A program made the translations under genes and the position numbers. A DNA stretch of 60,030 nt from Escherichia coli (GTDB lineage Bacteria > Pseudomonadota > Gammaproteobacteria > Enterobacterales > Enterobacteriaceae): assembly GCF_003334405.1 (NCBI RefSeq), contig NZ_QOWM01000020.1; one strand, 5' to 3'. This document shows, piece after piece, positions 38,096 to 45,249 of this stretch (the first letter of the stretch is position 1; the number at the start of each line of letters is the position of its first letter). The notes under the pieces were generated by a model. That model worked only from the letters and a program-made list of their open reading frames with translations, was not told the origin of the DNA and did not search any database.

Positions 38096-38172
38096 GCGCC
38101 CTTAGCTCAGTTGGATAGAGCAACGACCTTCTAAGTCGTGGGCCGCAGGTTCGAATCCTGCAGGGCGCGCCA
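38096..38172 (+). tRNA. argU: tRNA-Arg (anticodon UCU)
   Basis: 77-nt cloverleaf GCGCCCTTAGCTCAGTTGGATAGAGC...CTTCTAAGTCG...GGTTCGAATCCTGCAGGGCGCGCCA with anticodon loop cuUCUaa and encoded CCA. Confidence 0.9.
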
Positions 38173-38217: not shown

Positions 38218-38979
38218 TCACCACATCACTTTTTGTCGCTGTTTGGCGAGATAATTCAACGGTGTCAGGCCGTAAAACGCCTTAAAAACAGAGATAAAGT
38301 ACGACGTGCTGCTATAGCCACATAATTGCGCCACCTGAGTGATATTTTTGTTATCCATCAATAACATCTGTACGGCGTAACGCATACGACACTCTGTGAC
38401 AATCTGGCTATAGCTGGTATTTTCGTTTTTTAATTTCTTTTTGAGCAGGCTGGGGCTTAAACATAGCGAACTGGCGACAATTCGCAGATTCCAGTAATGC
38501 TGAATATCGCTTTGAATAATGCGGCAGACGCTGTCGCGGACGCTGCTGCGTAAGATATACATCAGTAGGGCAATAAACCGCGATTGCTCAAGAAAGTTAG
38601 ACAATACGGTAAAAAGCAATGCGCGCGTCAACTCCGCTTCGCAGGGTCTGCTGGGTTGCTGCTTGCTGTGGTTGGCGGCTAGCCGGAACACTTCCGGTGT
38701 ACGGCTATGACAAGCGATAACCGGGGTTGCCAGCCGCGACCAGGGCTTTACACAGGTTAAGTTCTTATTTAAAAACAACAGATAATCGTTGATGATGTTA
38801 CGGTTGATGTGGGTGATTAATACGTGATTTAACGTTGAGAGTTCAATGACGTTATTGTTGCACGCGAAGGCGGCCAGGTAGTTTTTCGGAAGGGTAAACG
38901 TAGCATGGTTATTGACGCTTACCTCTACCTCTTTTTCGGTCAGGATCACCACGCAAGGTTCACTGCTGCTCAATTGCAT
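38218..38979 (-). CDS. envY: AraC-family transcriptional regulator (porin thermoregulation)
   Basis: 253 aa; C-terminal AraC-type HTH. Confidence 0.85.
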   Translation of the reverse strand: MQLSSSEPCVVILTEKEVEVSVNNHATFTLPKNYLAAFACNNNVIELSTLNHVLITHINRNIINDYLLFLNKNLTCVKPWSRLATPVIACHSRTPEVFRLAANHSKQQPSRPCEAELTRALLFTVLSNFLEQSRFIALLMYILRSSVRDSVCRIIQSDIQHYWNLRIVASSLCLSPSLLKKKLKNENTSYSQIVTECRMRYAVQMLLMDNKNITQVAQLCGYSSTSYFISVFKAFYGLTPLNYLAKQRQKVMW

Positions 38980-39161
38980 TTCGCACTCCTCAGATATCAG
39001 AAACTCCGCTCAAAGGATCTATGCTTCCTGCATGAGTGATCGGCCCGTTCGCCGATAACGATCTTCTTTCTTTAGCACGCTTTTTAGCAATTAATCTTGA
39101 TGGAATTCTGATGAGAGCGAAAGAGGTAAGCCAGGTCGTACCCGACTTACCTGGAGGAGAT

Positions 39162-40052
39162 TTAATACTCGAGAATGCCGTGCGCGACGGGCAAATAGCG
39201 CAGAGAGAAATAGAGAGTGTCTTTACCGCAAGAGGAACGTTTCGCTAACAGCGAGGCAATTTCTGCGTCCGGTTTCGGTTTCGCTGTAAAGGTTTTGCCT
39301 TTGCCGGCGACAAAAAGTTCATAAACAACGCCGCTGGCAGGGGCGGGACTTTGGCAATCGGCGCTGGCCTGTAAATAACGTTCACGCTGTTCAGCGGTCA
39401 GTTTATCCACGCCGCTGCCATCCTGTACCCAGACATTAACGCCGGTTGCTTTAACGTGTTCCAGCAGTTGGCGATAGCCATCGGGCGACATGTTTCCGGC
39501 GAAAAAACTACTGATATAAACCGGTTTTGCTGAAACATCGCTAATCAGCCGCTGCGCGTTGTTTAACCATGTTAGCAAAGGCTGACGGGCGGCTTCGCTG
39601 CGCCAGTTCAGGTCGTCAATTTCCGCGCTGATGTACCAGCCATCCGGCGTTATGCCAGGCGCGGCGCTCCATAATCTGGCTTGCTGGAGATCGGCAGCCA
39701 GCAGGCGATTAAGATAGCTTTCCAGCGCTGCGGACGACTGTTTCTGGTGCATAAAAAATTCCGGATCGGCGTTCAGCCCGACAATAAGCTTCAGACCAGC
39801 CTGTTGCGCAGCTGCGGCCCGCTTAAACAATAACGTGCGCTGTTCTGGCTGGGTAAATGCATCGCCGTAACGGGTCCATTGCAAAACAAGGGTATCGAAG
39901 CCTTGCAAACGTAACTGACTCATCAGCCCCTGCCACTGGGTATCGGTAACCTGACTATCTCGGTTTTGTGGTTGCCAGATAATACCTTTCATCGCAAAGG
40001 AAAAAGGGCTGACCAAAAGCAGTGTCAGCAATACGAAAATGAACTTACGCAT
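39162..40052 (-). CDS. ybcH: Periplasmic protein of the nfr locus (YbcH), secreted
   Basis: 296 aa with signal peptide MRKFIFVLLTLLLVSPFSFA; directly downstream of nfrA. Confidence 0.8.
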   Translation of the reverse strand: MRKFIFVLLTLLLVSPFSFAMKGIIWQPQNRDSQVTDTQWQGLMSQLRLQGFDTLVLQWTRYGDAFTQPEQRTLLFKRAAAAQQAGLKLIVGLNADPEFFMHQKQSSAALESYLNRLLAADLQQARLWSAAPGITPDGWYISAEIDDLNWRSEAARQPLLTWLNNAQRLISDVSAKPVYISSFFAGNMSPDGYRQLLEHVKATGVNVWVQDGSGVDKLTAEQRERYLQASADCQSPAPASGVVYELFVAGKGKTFTAKPKPDAEIASLLAKRSSCGKDTLYFSLRYLPVAHGILEY

Positions 40053-43025
40053 TTACCAGTGCACTCCAATGGTGAGAAACGCGTTGTTGCGCTCTCCGTT
40101 ACGTTGATTAATCGCCTTAAAGGTATGTTGATACTCGACGCCGAGACTGACTTTGTGCGGCCAGGCGTCGTAGTGCGTCTCGCCGGTCCAGATATTCCAG
40201 CGGACCCCGACTCCGCCAAGCTGCGCGCCCTGAGTGCCTTTATCACGATAGCCGTTGTCCTGAACGTGAGCGTAAGGCTCAATAGTCTGTCCGTTAGCTA
40301 CCTTCTGATGCCAGCTGACGCGATAATCTGCCGTCCACGCCTGAATATCCTGGCGGATATATTGCGCCGCATCGAGGTACAGGTTTTGGGCAAACCAGCC
40401 TGAACCGTTCGGGTGCCATTCGTCGCTGTATTTGCCGCCATTAAAGAATGAGGCGCTGGCGCGCAGCATGGTATCGGATGCGCCATTTTGGCCGTTCAGC
40501 GGCAACTGCTGTTCGACGGCGATGAAAAAGATCTGATCGCGCAGCGGCTTCCAGCGCAGACCGGTGCCGGACATCGGATTTTTCACCGGCATCATCACCC
40601 CGTTTTCTCCGGTATCGGCAAAGACGCGGCTATAAACTGAGAGCAGGTCGCCTTCCAGCAGCATATTGCGTCCGATGCGGTACTCGGCTTCCAGTTGTCC
40701 GTAGCTACGATAGCTTTTCCCTGGCGCTGCGCCGCCGACATTATTGTTAGCGGTACTCATTGCGCCGGAACGCAAGCCGATGGAAGAATCGAAACTGAAC
40801 GTCCAGCGGCGACCGACCTCCTCATGCAAACGGCGGAAATTGAAGCGTTGTTGATTTTGTTCTGGGGTCAGTGGGGTTATCAGCGCCTGATTATCAATGT
40901 CATCAATCACCAGCCGGGCGTAGTGCTGCGTCGCAGGCATGTCATCCAGACGCTGGTTCACGTAGGCCAGTTGTCGGATCAGTGCCGGATCGTCCGGAAG
41001 CCCTTTATGCGCCGGTTCGAGCATTTCCCGCGACTGTGCGATATCACCGCTATCCCACAAGGCGTAACCAAGCGCTGCCTGGGTGTTGCTATTATTCGGT
41101 TCCAGTTCCAGCGCGGCGCGCAAATCACTCACCGCGGCCGGGACATTATGACGTTGGCGATAAATTGTCGCCCGCGCAACGTAAGCGTTGGCAGAAGGCG
41201 CAATATTGATTGAGCGCGTGAGATCGTTCAGTGCGAGTTCCGGCTGACCAGGAATGTAACGTTGCGCATGCAGCCACCAGTAGAGGGCATTGCTTCCCAG
41301 TCCACGTTTTTCTGCCTGTTGTAGCCAGCGATCGCGAGCCGCACCATTTCCTGCCGCCTGGGCGGTATTGGCAGCAGCAAGCAGATCCTCATTGCTCATG
41401 TCGTGAAGACTGATTTTCTGCCAGGCCGCCAGTGCGGTGGCGTAGTCCTCAACCTGATACGCCTGATAGGCTACCGCACGATGTTGCCAGGCGCTCGGTT
41501 GTCGTTGTTCGGCCTGAAGCCATGCATACAACGCCACACCGGGTAGCGTGTCCCGATAACACTTTGCCAGACGGTTCCAGGCGGCGGCATCGTAGGAAGG
41601 CGACATATCGCCCAGCAAGCGAACTATTGCCGGGCAATTATCTGCAATACCCGGCAACTGACTTTGCCACTGATGTTGCTCCGCCAGCGGTAAGGGTTTC
41701 GATAAAATCGCCACCTTCGCCGGCGTTGCCAGGTAAGGATGACTTTCCAGCAGAGACGCCAGTCGCGCCATTAAAGTCTGGCTGACACGCGCATCGCCCT
41801 GGAAAGGATAGCGTTGCAGCAATAAATCGGCAGCTTCGCGTGACTGCTCGTTCTGCATCAGTTGCCAGGTTAGTTGATCCAGGCGGGTAAGATTTGCCGG
41901 TTCTTGCTGATACAGCAATCGTGCCAGACGCAGAGCTTCAGCCTTGTTACGGGTCGCCACGCTGACAGCATAACGCTCCTCAAGCATTTCATTGGCGGGG
42001 AGGGTGGCGAGCAGTTTTTGCGCTGCGTCGTACTGACCTTCTTTTAACAGCACCGGTAGCGTCGCGCCAACAACATACTGGCGGTTGTCGGCAAACTGTA
42101 CCGTATAATTCGCCAACGCCTGAACGGGGTTAGCGCTGTATTTAGATAACAGATAGAGCCAACTTTTCTCTTGTGCGTCCGTGGTAAATAGTGGCTTATT
42201 TTCAATGAGATAATGCTGGAGGCGTGCTTTTTCGCCACGATAAGCCAGCGCGGTCGCGTAAGTAATATATGACTGAGGATCGGTGAAGATCCCCTGTGAT
42301 TGCAGTGCCAGGATCCGATCGTCCAGCTGCCCGGCAAGAAGCACGTCAAACCACTGACGGCGTTCTGCCGCGCTTAATGTGTTCTGCTGGCGTGCTTCAT
42401 TGTATAGCGTATCTGCCTGGGACCATTGTTTCAGGTAGATTGCCCGTTGCAGCAGATCGGTTCGCAGCGTTTTTCCTTCCGGCGATGCAGCAAACGTCGC
42501 ATCGTTCAGTTGCGCTCTGGCGACAGGTAACTGTGCCAGCCGCAGGGCATTCTGCCCGACTTCACTGCGACAACGCAGGGTCGGCGCAGCATCGCACGCT
42601 TTTTGCTGGGCAAGCAGTTCTTCAACTGTCGTAACGCTTTTCACTTCAACCGGAATAGCCGCCAGACTGCGCTCAAGTCGGGCATCTCCTGGGTGACGTT
42701 TCAGTTGATCCTCAAGCAACAGCCGCGCCCGGTCATCATGACCAAAATGGCGATAGGCTTCCGCAAGGTATAAAGTCAGCGGAATATTATCCGGCACCTG
42801 CTGGTGTATATATTCAAATTCGCGGATGGCGGTTGCTTCGTCGTTATTTTTCTGTGCCTTCAGCGCTTTATCGAGACGGGGATAAATAACAAAATGGCGA
42901 TAATCGCTCAGCCCCAGCTCTTCTGCGCTGGTGCCGATATTGTCTGCGAGTGCGCTGGTACTCAATAAAGACGTCAGCAGTAAACCAGACCATCCGATGA
43001 CGCGATTAAGGTTATTCTCCTTCAT
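40053..43025 (-). CDS. nfrA: Outer-membrane phage N4 adsorption protein A (TPR-rich periplasmic domain plus C-terminal beta-barrel)
   Basis: ~990 aa; signal peptide; ends ...FLTIGVHW (aromatic C-terminus typical of OM barrels). Confidence 0.85.
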   Translation of the reverse strand: MKENNLNRVIGWSGLLLTSLLSTSALADNIGTSAEELGLSDYRHFVIYPRLDKALKAQKNNDEATAIREFEYIHQQVPDNIPLTLYLAEAYRHFGHDDRARLLLEDQLKRHPGDARLERSLAAIPVEVKSVTTVEELLAQQKACDAAPTLRCRSEVGQNALRLAQLPVARAQLNDATFAASPEGKTLRTDLLQRAIYLKQWSQADTLYNEARQQNTLSAAERRQWFDVLLAGQLDDRILALQSQGIFTDPQSYITYATALAYRGEKARLQHYLIENKPLFTTDAQEKSWLYLLSKYSANPVQALANYTVQFADNRQYVVGATLPVLLKEGQYDAAQKLLATLPANEMLEERYAVSVATRNKAEALRLARLLYQQEPANLTRLDQLTWQLMQNEQSREAADLLLQRYPFQGDARVSQTLMARLASLLESHPYLATPAKVAILSKPLPLAEQHQWQSQLPGIADNCPAIVRLLGDMSPSYDAAAWNRLAKCYRDTLPGVALYAWLQAEQRQPSAWQHRAVAYQAYQVEDYATALAAWQKISLHDMSNEDLLAAANTAQAAGNGAARDRWLQQAEKRGLGSNALYWWLHAQRYIPGQPELALNDLTRSINIAPSANAYVARATIYRQRHNVPAAVSDLRAALELEPNNSNTQAALGYALWDSGDIAQSREMLEPAHKGLPDDPALIRQLAYVNQRLDDMPATQHYARLVIDDIDNQALITPLTPEQNQQRFNFRRLHEEVGRRWTFSFDSSIGLRSGAMSTANNNVGGAAPGKSYRSYGQLEAEYRIGRNMLLEGDLLSVYSRVFADTGENGVMMPVKNPMSGTGLRWKPLRDQIFFIAVEQQLPLNGQNGASDTMLRASASFFNGGKYSDEWHPNGSGWFAQNLYLDAAQYIRQDIQAWTADYRVSWHQKVANGQTIEPYAHVQDNGYRDKGTQGAQLGGVGVRWNIWTGETHYDAWPHKVSLGVEYQHTFKAINQRNGERNNAFLTIGVHW

Positions 43026-45249
43026 TTTCGGACTCCAGTTGCGCAACCTGTTCTGTGTTTAAACCTGCTTTGAGTAATAGTGATTGCATCGAAACTTGTA
43101 ATTCGCGTTGAATTGTCAGGACGCGATCCAACGTTTCCTGGCTGATAACGCCTTCGGTGACCAAAAACTTGCCGAGCGGCAGAGAACTGCGTTCATGGCG
43201 CAATAACAACACGTTAATTGCTGAACGATTAATATGACCGAGCGTGGTCAGTATTTCGGCGAACAGGAACTGATGCGGCACATATTGCCGCCAGATTTCA
43301 CCGGCCTGCTGTTCCGTGAGCCACTGATGCTGAACCGCATTGTACAACATTGCCCGCGGATCGTGACCGCGTCGGCGTGCATACCAGTGACGTAACCCTG
43401 TGACAATTTGTCCCCGCAGAACAATGACGTAACGCACTTTGCGTCCGACTTTACGCGTCAGGGCCGCCAGCGAAACCGGGTCAATACCATCTTCACTGCC
43501 GACAATTAACTCGTCATTTTCCAGACGCAGCGGCAGTACCGCATAATGCAGCGCCACGGAGGCCGGCATTTCGGCAATCAGCGAGGAAGGGATCTGCCAG
43601 GCATCGATGGATTCCCACGCCACGCCGTTTTGCTCTGCCAGCGCCTGTGCCAGCTGCTCGGCGCTAATCAGCCCCTGCATCAGCATTGAACCGCCCAGGC
43701 GTAGACCTTCGACGCGATTACGCAGTGCTGTATCGAGTTGTTCTTCAGTGATGACCTGATTTTCCAGCAGAATTTGACCTAACGGGCGCAACGAGCGGGT
43801 ATCGCCAGTCACGCTGGGGAAGTCATGCGTTGTTTTATCCCACGCCACGCGACGTGGATCGCCGTGTTGAAGTACCTGTTTTAGCGCGCGCCAGTTGGCC
43901 ATGAAGTTAATCAGGTTGCCCCAGAAAAGACGCAGGACGGAAAGCAGCCCCTGCGTCAGGCCGTAGTAGCCAGTAACGAAAATCACCCGCTGCACGATGC
44001 GGTTAACCATCAAACCAAAGTTTAGCCACAGCAGGGTCATTAACCATGCGCTGCCGCTGAAAATAGAAAGGAAATGCCAGGCATCGGGCCACAAACTTTC
44101 ATACGCCAGCAACAGCAAAAGCTGGATCATCACCAGCATCGCGAGGAAGCTGACAAAGTTACTGATTGCCCCTTTGCGGTCGCGCCAGAGAAAGTAGTTC
44201 AGCGTCAGGCTGGAGGTCCATTTATGGGTTTTAAAGCCTTGGAAAACAATGCCGATGATCCAGCGGGATTTTTGTCGAACCGCAGTCGAAAAGGTATCGG
44301 GGAAATATTCGCGCACGCAGATCATGTTTGATGTCCGCGCGTGCTGTAAAAATTTACGCTGCTCGCGTTCTTTGGCTTCGTCCACCACCGGAAAACGGAC
44401 AAAAATTTCCGTCATACCTTTTTCTTTCAGGCGGAAGCCAATGTCGTAATCTTCAGTAAGACTCTGCACGTCGAAAGCAATACCGTCACCGTCAGCTAAC
44501 AGTGCGGTCACGGCGCGGCGGCTGAAACAGGTGCCGACGCCTGCGCTGGGCACTTGTCCGGCGAGGGCTTCACGCACCGGAACATCTTTGCCATGCAGCT
44601 CTGAAAACTCATCAATGTAAGTCATGCTGGTGAAGTGCGTCCATTCGCGTTCGAACGGATACACCGGGATCTGAATCAGATCTTTACGCTCGACCAGATA
44701 GTTGAACAGACGCAATTCCATCGGTGAAATCACATCTTCGGCGTCATGCAGAATAAAACCAGCAAAAGCGAAATTGGCGCTACGCTCAAATTGGGTGATG
44801 GCGTCCAGCACGTTGTTCAGACAGTCGGCTTTGCTGGTGGGGCCAGGACGCGCGCAGACTACCTTATGCACATTCGGGAAGCGAGCGCACACTTCGTCAA
44901 CATCACGCTGAGTATCGGGGGCGTTGGGGTAGGTGCCAACAAAGATATGATAGTTTTCGTAGTCGAGCGTGGTCGCCGCCAGCTCGGCCATATTGCCGAT
45001 GACGCCCGTTTCATTCCACGCCGGAACCATAATCGCTAACGGTTTTTCATCTGGTTTATACAGTTCGCGGTAACTCATTCGCGGGTAGCGGCGATAAACA
45101 CTCAACTTGCGTTTAATGCGGCGTACCCAGTAGACGACATCAATAAAAAAATCGTCCAGCCCGCTGATGAACATGATGACCGCTAACGTTATCGCGATTA
45201 CTTTTAAGCCGTAGAGCCAGGTAGCAAAAACATCAAGAAGCCAGTCCAC
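43012..45249 (-). CDS. nfrB: Inner-membrane family-2 glycosyltransferase with C-terminal MshEN-type c-di-GMP-binding motifs (phage N4 adsorption protein B)
   Basis: 745 aa; N-terminal TM helix; GT2 D-x-D-type motif (ILHDAEDVIS); C-terminal repeats RLGGSMLMQGLISAEQLAQALAEQ and LGKFLVTEGVISQETLDRVLTIQ; 14-nt overlap with nfrA. Confidence 0.85.
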   Translation of the reverse strand: MDWLLDVFATWLYGLKVIAITLAVIMFISGLDDFFIDVVYWVRRIKRKLSVYRRYPRMSYRELYKPDEKPLAIMVPAWNETGVIGNMAELAATTLDYENYHIFVGTYPNAPDTQRDVDEVCARFPNVHKVVCARPGPTSKADCLNNVLDAITQFERSANFAFAGFILHDAEDVISPMELRLFNYLVERKDLIQIPVYPFEREWTHFTSMTYIDEFSELHGKDVPVREALAGQVPSAGVGTCFSRRAVTALLADGDGIAFDVQSLTEDYDIGFRLKEKGMTEIFVRFPVVDEAKEREQRKFLQHARTSNMICVREYFPDTFSTAVRQKSRWIIGIVFQGFKTHKWTSSLTLNYFLWRDRKGAISNFVSFLAMLVMIQLLLLLAYESLWPDAWHFLSIFSGSAWLMTLLWLNFGLMVNRIVQRVIFVTGYYGLTQGLLSVLRLFWGNLINFMANWRALKQVLQHGDPRRVAWDKTTHDFPSVTGDTRSLRPLGQILLENQVITEEQLDTALRNRVEGLRLGGSMLMQGLISAEQLAQALAEQNGVAWESIDAWQIPSSLIAEMPASVALHYAVLPLRLENDELIVGSEDGIDPVSLAALTRKVGRKVRYVIVLRGQIVTGLRHWYARRRGHDPRAMLYNAVQHQWLTEQQAGEIWRQYVPHQFLFAEILTTLGHINRSAINVLLLRHERSSLPLGKFLVTEGVISQETLDRVLTIQRELQVSMQSLLLKAGLNTEQVAQLESENEGE

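Follow-up and report, generated by a model that had tools for sequence, protein, structure and literature searches.

YbcH, third component of the Nfr exopolysaccharide system of Escherichia coli, as a candidate periplasmic glycoside hydrolase

The nfrB-nfrA-ybcH genes lie in a 60,030-nucleotide stretch of Escherichia coli DNA (assembly GCF_003334405.1, contig NZ_QOWM01000020.1), hereafter called the window. It was not until 2021 that the Nfr system was identified as an exopolysaccharide machine gated by cyclic di-GMP (c-di-GMP) and as the entry route of phage N4. We propose that YbcH, the product of the last of these genes, is probably a periplasmic glycoside hydrolase (GH), or a hydrolase/transglycosylase, acting on the polysaccharide made by NfrB and exported by NfrA. 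A sequence-only reading of the window had put YbcH forward as a candidate polysaccharide-processing enzyme, and this proposal is supported in silico by its fold, by the conservation of a pair of glutamates, by synteny and by a partial mutant phenotype. Positions in the window are collected in Table 1.

YbcH belongs to the Pfam family DUF4434 (PF14488), which matches residues 21-291 over model positions 1-282 of 283 (i-Evalue 1.8e-69), and it scores 520.4 bits against the NCBIfam model NF007404, for which the cutoff is 344. The family is small, as an exhaustive phmmer search of 1.84 billion representatives returned only 448 relatives. A Pfam scan of 64 YbcH relatives detected no family other than DUF4434, with a weak Cellulase signal (E 0.056) in a single member. 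The AlphaFold2 model, computed from a 36-sequence alignment, has a mean predicted local distance difference test score (pLDDT) of 91.9 and a predicted template modelling score of 0.89, and consists of eight strand-helix units with strands at residues 22-26, 54-57, 88-92, 138-146, 178-183, 206-210, 241-245 and 278-282. The TIM-barrel-like fold guessed earlier from sequence is therefore a (beta/alpha)8 barrel in the model. Structural comparison of this model gave the highest score to 4h41, the Bacteroides thetaiotaomicron protein BT_0435 (19.7), followed by a GH164 beta-mannosidase (17.1), a GH5 mannanase (16.9), GH42 and GH14 (16.5 each), the PgaB/BpsB hydrolase domain (6au1) and GH2 (16.2 each), GH113 (16.1) and GH53 (about 15). 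The top matches are enriched in beta-mannan-active enzymes, with score gaps too small to fix specificity: the clan GH-A beta-mannosidases and beta-mannanases (GH164, GH5_7, GH113), which have no significant sequence similarity to YbcH, score barely above GH42, GH14, GH2 and GH53, so that a mannan-specific reading is not established. Structure prediction and comparison with GH-like folds, the check proposed in the sequence-only reading, thus come out in its favour, and the likeness to carbohydrate-active enzymes whose lack would have told against it is present.

Sequence searches of the PDB with YbcH alone returned only noise (aminopeptidase N at E about 1). The family profile retrieved 4h41 as its only match (E 3.6e-4), with the strand-4 motif GWY-x-x-E kept. 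BT_0435, deposited as a 'putative alpha-L-fucosidase', shares 15% identity with YbcH and is matched by the profile over strands 1-5 only; it is not known to come from a locus of the Nfr type, and it transfers no activity to YbcH because its own function is only putative.

The pattern of conservation points to candidate catalytic residues. An alignment of the 64 full-length relatives, which are 24-48% identical with a mean column identity of 22%, contains only six invariant columns: Q27, Q58, W59, G92, E144 and E245. When all fetched loci were considered, very divergent Comamonadaceae versions included, E144 was found in 81/81 and E245 in 80/81 YbcH-like open reading frames (ORFs). In the model, E144 lies within strand 138-146 and E245 ends strand 241-245. 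All eight strands contribute to the 20 invariant or near-invariant positions, 17 of which are located at the C-terminal ends of strands or in the loops that follow them, the face that binds the substrate and holds the active site in TIM-barrel enzymes. The hallmark of clan GH-A (the '4/7' enzymes) is an acid/base glutamate on strand 4 and a nucleophile glutamate on strand 7. YbcH combines the (beta/alpha)8 barrel with conserved glutamates on both strands, and the modelled placement of Glu144 and Glu245 fits the acid/base and nucleophile pattern, making them candidates for these two roles.

As a check of register, the YbcH family profile was aligned locally, with hhalign, to a 117-sequence profile of the beta-glucuronidase (GH2, UidA) catalytic domain. 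E144 falls exactly on E413, in the NEP motif of E. coli beta-glucuronidase, in a weak match (P 0.006, probability 6%); in a relaxed alignment of this same weak match, E245 comes one residue off E504. In UidA, E413 is the acid/base and E504 the nucleophile. With UidA as a single sequence the probability was 1.7%, and the alignment serves as a register check only, being by itself no evidence of homology.

Several observations weigh against a hydrolase. YbcH lacks the Asn that stands just before the acid/base glutamate in the NEP motif: the E. coli protein has Ala at position 143, a site that differs between family members (E, A, L, D, F, G). Because this Asn is not conserved, we file YbcH as GH-A-like rather than as a member of the clan. 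Pfam and PDB searches found no significant sequence match to a characterised member of any CAZy GH family, the profile links to known GH families are not significant alone (6% probability for GH2), and hhalign detected no relationship between the YbcH family and the PgaB C-terminal domain (GH153, residues 310-672). Foldseek matches in the PDB are weak (TM 0.4-0.5) and mix GHs with unrelated TIM barrels, among them UlaE, phosphotriesterase and KDO8P synthase, and those in AFDB50 are only unnamed DUF4434 proteins. The sole profile match, 4h41, is an uncharacterised structural-genomics entry. In the library searched, no paper characterised a DUF4434 member or put forward a hydrolase function for YbcH. 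Finally, the authors who described the operon regard YbcH as a membrane-anchored scaffold, reporting a signal-like region that lacks a signal peptidase site and would keep the protein in the membrane (Junkermeier & Hengge 2021, PMC8669469).

The N-terminus of YbcH bears directly on this last point. It reads MRKFIFVLLTLLLVSPFSFA followed by MKG, with a basic n-region, a hydrophobic core of 16 residues, Pro at -5 and S-F-A at -3 to -1. Among 36 orthologues (43-89% identity), position -1 is Ala in 35/35 and position -3 is A, S, V, T or G in 34/35. In the AlphaFold2 model the region forms a detached helix (residues 2-12), with low pLDDT at residues 14-17. This layout matches the classic signal peptidase I pattern, and the conserved A-x-A motif suggests that the peptide is cleaved. 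The signal peptide claimed in the sequence-only reading thus holds as to its layout and conservation, its cleavage being contradicted by PMC8669469. Either way, cleaved or anchored, the globular domain faces the periplasm. A lipoprotein identity was rejected, as no lipobox Cys follows the signal peptide. YbcH is moreover the sole small soluble exported protein of the operon, as had been claimed, since NfrB is an inner-membrane family 2 glycosyltransferase (GT2) and NfrA combines tetratricopeptide repeats (TPR) with an outer-membrane barrel.

The published alternative to a hydrolase is a periplasmic scaffold or polysaccharide-binding chaperone without catalytic activity, perhaps anchored to the inner membrane through a signal sequence that stays uncleaved; it would link NfrB to the TPR domain of NfrA or steer the growing chain. 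The label 'periplasmatic putative scaffold protein' was proposed by Junkermeier & Hengge (PMC8669469), on the basis of operon position and hydropathy, and was repeated in a 2023 review from the same group (PMC10211494). The partial phenotype of a ybcH deletion agrees with such a role. Sugar-binding TIM-barrel pseudo-enzymes also exist. However, an invariant pair of glutamates on strands 4 and 7, together with conservation of the catalytic face, is expected of an enzyme and not of a protein-protein adaptor, and the conserved A-x-A motif argues for cleavage rather than anchoring. We therefore consider a scaffold, bridging or guiding, unlikely.

Support for a glycoside hydrolase working on the Nfr polymer comes also from gene order. 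An alignment of the NfrB glycosyltransferase domain, scanned against one genome per species (GTDB), yielded 80 loci spanning Enterobacterales, Aeromonas, Vibrionaceae, Alteromonadales, Rhodanobacteraceae, Neisseriales and Burkholderiales, and their six-frame ORFs were searched with hidden Markov models of YbcH, NfrA, NfrB and WecB. A YbcH-like gene lies downstream of nfrA, on the same strand, in 71 of the 72 informative loci (those with enough DNA past nfrA), and abuts or overlaps the nfrA stop in 65/71. More distant metagenomic relatives (26-41% identity) are encoded after a GT2 gene, with or without the MshEN domain, and a gene for a TPR/NfrA_C protein. As with the periplasmic hydrolases of synthase-dependent systems, the gene belongs to the operon of the synthase and of the outer-membrane porin, and this linkage is kept across taxa. 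A gene for a WecB-like epimerase immediately precedes nfrB in 44/80 loci, and in 6 it comes straight after the ybcH homologue; some metagenomic Nfr loci have a UDP-GlcNAc 2-epimerase gene directly upstream (for example L006:2697-3830). Most Enterobacterales loci have no local wecB because theirs sits in the enterobacterial common antigen (ECA) cluster. Sellner et al. 2021 (PMC8669472), who never mention ybcH, postulated a WecB-dependent polymer based on N-acetylmannosamine (ManNAc), and the wecB linkage independently supports their hypothesis. Taken together, the 71/72 synteny and the wecB linkage therefore indicate that YbcH is no E. coli oddity but a core, co-inherited third part of a ManNAc-linked synthase system. 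This near-exclusive coupling to nfrB-nfrA, and often to wecB, points to a shared ManNAc polymer and renders very improbable the idea that YbcH hydrolyses another substrate, peptidoglycan or some other envelope glycan, so that the export machinery can assemble. A need for a peptidoglycan hydrolase is not known from any synthase-dependent exopolysaccharide system.

Some loci depart from the common arrangement. The single exception among the 72, Lysobacter xinjiangensis (L075:12196-16400), has a shorter nfrA (808 aa) followed by rimM and trmD, and no DUF4434 gene. In Algicola sagamiensis the ybcH-like gene directly follows nfrB (L079:9998-13110), and the search of this 21-kb locus turned up no homologue of NfrA. 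Photobacterium sp. GB-56 carries the wecB-nfrB-nfrA-ybcH cassette twice in tandem on the same strand (L086:1375-8514 and L086:8931-16052). In one metagenomic locus (L001:8997-11518), genes for GGDEF-EAL and CBS/PAS proteins lie immediately downstream, convergent with the ybcH homologue, and this arrangement recalls the dedicated DgcJ-NfrB signalling pair of E. coli.

Six Comamonadaceae-type loci, from Comamonas, Polaromonas, Diaphorobacter and related Burkholderiales, contain an extra gene of 545-600 aa between nfrA and a divergent DUF4434 gene (L072:10174-11808, L073:13987-15621, L074:11218-12969 and L078:15134-16942; also L071 and L077). Its product matches Pfam DUF2334 (E 7e-42), with no NCBIfam match and no PDB sequence match, and a literature search on DUF2334 found nothing functional. 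DUF2334 may belong to the glycoside hydrolase/deacetylase clan; if so, the DUF2334 and DUF4434 genes would mimic, as a separate pair, the two-domain layout of PgaB. The extra gene shows that further processing functions can join these clusters, which is one reason to consider YbcH itself as a non-hydrolase modifier of the polysaccharide, for example an esterase or a de-N-acetylase of the kind seen in PelA and in the N-terminal domain of PgaB. Deacetylases are frequent in synthase-dependent systems (PgaB, PelA), and the sequence-only reading had listed them as an option. The absence of any conserved histidine in the YbcH family argues against a CE4-type deacetylase, and a metal-dependent enzyme of this type was rejected, since neither its Asp-His-His triad nor its catalytic His was found. 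We give a modifier of this kind only a very slight chance.

As a proposed glycoside hydrolase, YbcH can be compared with the accessory enzymes of other exopolysaccharide systems. One parallel is PslG (GH39, clan GH-A) of the Pseudomonas aeruginosa Psl system, a periplasmic, signal-sequence-bearing protein encoded in an exopolysaccharide operon; it has in common with YbcH the (beta/alpha)8 barrel and a glutamate on each of strands 4 and 7, catalytic in PslG and candidate residues in YbcH, and its role in polymer output is accessory and non-essential. BcsZ (GH8), which is needed for optimal but not basal polymer production, resembles the proposed YbcH in being periplasmic and encoded, in the cellulose operon, with a c-di-GMP-activated GT2 synthase and a TPR-barrel porin; it differs in its (alpha/alpha)6 fold and inverting mechanism. 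The C-terminal domain of PgaB/BpsB (GH153), from the poly-beta-1,6-GlcNAc system, has no detectable sequence-profile relation to YbcH. PgaB is a lipoprotein that joins this domain to a CE4 deacetylase; YbcH, in contrast, consists of the one domain and has no lipobox, and the E. coli Nfr operon, unlike the Pga system, contains no deacetylase.

Loss of BcsZ, PslG and related enzymes typically causes a partial, modulatory phenotype. In E. coli, ybcH is dispensable for N4 plaque formation, and its deletion relieves the Nfr-dependent inhibition of motility only in part (PMC8669469), so that the gene is not dispensable for all nfr phenotypes, a pattern that would match that of these enzymes. A 2025 preprint gives ybcH mutants a moderate fitness score under N4 selection, and a 2009 functional atlas had already linked YbcH to the Rff/ECA pathways.

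These features suggest a mechanism in which the Sec signal peptide would direct the barrel to the periplasm, where YbcH would cleave or transglycosylate the nascent NfrB product en route to the NfrA channel. Glu144 in strand 4 would serve as the general acid/base, and Glu245, which closes strand 7, would be the nucleophile, following the scheme of the retaining enzymes of clan GH-A. The substrate would be the ManNAc-based N4 glycan receptor. By trimming, releasing or clearing nascent chains, whether for chain release, for length control or for removal of stalled polymer, YbcH may tune the amount or the length of the exported polymer without being essential for export. As an inverting GT2 with UDP-alpha-ManNAc for its donor, NfrB is expected to build a polymer with beta linkages. 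Clan GH-A enzymes are beta-specific and cleave with retention, and the expected linkage would fit the chemistry of a GH-A-like barrel. It would likewise agree with the enrichment in beta-mannan-active enzymes among the best structural matches, whose score gaps are too small to fix specificity. The NEP-motif Asn of this clan normally contacts the sugar 2-OH; one may speculate that its absence suits a 2-acetamido sugar. A further and rather doubtful step would be that DUF4434/YbcH founds a new GH family, an endo-beta-N-acetylmannosaminidase acting on the N4 glycan receptor, with loss of the Asn as an adaptation to the axial 2-acetamido group; to our knowledge, no enzyme family with this activity has been described, and such an enzyme would be the tool for solving the structure of the polymer and for stripping the receptor from cells. 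A polymer of uronic acids is unlikely, because wecC, and hence N-acetylmannosaminuronic acid (ManNAcA), is not needed for N4 infection (PMC8669469), and a polysaccharide lyase was rejected on this ground.

Table 1. Features of the ybcH region, in window positions.
Feature	Position	Strand	Description
ybcH coding sequence	39162..40052	-	891-nt ORF, 296 codons plus stop; DUF4434 family
Predicted Sec signal peptide	39993..40052	-	Residues 1-20 (MRKFIFVLLTLLLVSPFSFA); putative cleavage after Ala20
YbcH mature domain	39165..39992	-	Residues 21-296; eight-stranded beta/alpha barrel (modelled)
Glu144 codon	39621..39623	-	GAA; strand 4, motif GWYISAEIDD; candidate general acid/base
Glu245 codon	39318..39320	-	GAA; last residue of strand 7, motif VVYELF; candidate nucleophile
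Shine-Dalgarno-like GGAG	40064..40067	-	Within the nfrA 3' end, 11 nt upstream of the ybcH ATG
nfrA	40053..43025	-	TPR-repeat and outer-membrane barrel export protein, likely 990 aa
nfrB	43012..45249	-	c-di-GMP-activated family 2 glycosyltransferase (synthase), C-terminal MshEN domain

The ybcH DNA matches many E. coli chromosomes with 100% identity and carries there the RefSeq annotation 'ybcH: DUF4434 family protein', and a surrounding stretch of 9 kb, annotated fimZ, envY, ybcH, nfrA and nfrB, is likewise 100% identical to many complete E. coli chromosomes. The gene is the last of nfrB-nfrA-ybcH. Because the nfrA stop TAA (40053-40055) abuts the ybcH ATG (40050-40052), giving the junction TAAATG, and a Shine-Dalgarno-like GGAG lies inside nfrA, the three genes make up a single, closely spaced transcription unit, in line with the description for K-12 (PMC8669469). 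NfrB matches NCBIfam NF008411 (1329 bits) and the MshE-type c-di-GMP motif NF053729, and its biochemistry has been reported (PMC8669469); NfrA matches NF007302 'phage receptor' (1888 bits), aligned from residue 8 of a 997-aa ORF. This ORF starts in the ORF tool at a TTG (43046), and an ATG at 43025 gives 990 aa; the latter is probably the true start, given where the NCBIfam alignment begins and the resulting 14-nt overlap with nfrB, which equals that of K-12 (PMC8669469).

A simple scan of the minus strand over 39000-39161 found no canonical intrinsic terminator downstream of the ybcH stop; the sole feature between this stop and the envY side is an imperfect hairpin (AGGTAAG...CTTACCT, about 39126-39154) without a T-run. 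Beyond it, envY (38218-38979, minus strand) lies 45 bp past the tRNA-Arg(TCT) gene argU (38096-38172, plus strand), which itself lies between fimZ and envY. In K-12, the DLP12 prophage and the appY/ompT region separate argU from envY; the adjacency seen here therefore indicates that this strain has an empty argU attachment site and no ompT at this position. No match to the PADLOC defence models was obtained. Several E. coli database entries are truncated YbcH proteins, or join YbcH to adjacent ORFs (fusions of 589-718 aa, or including an AraC-family domain). They probably reflect artefacts of assembly or frameshifts, or else pseudogenes in certain lineages, for example a Shigella flexneri variant of 268 aa in AFDB.

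If YbcH is a glycoside hydrolase, its function differs from the published scaffold label, and E144 and E245 offer defined positions for point mutants. The role would be a well-known one filled by a new family; specialists would anticipate a hydrolase in an operon of this kind. Its presence would make the Nfr system a full counterpart of the Bcs, Pga, Pel and Psl systems. The enzyme would also be a reagent with which to digest and characterise the Nfr polymer. It would further provide a handle on how cells tune receptor display, and thereby on motility and on sensitivity to phage. In wider terms, DUF4434, the companion of NfrB and NfrA across Gamma- and Betaproteobacteria, would gain a function.
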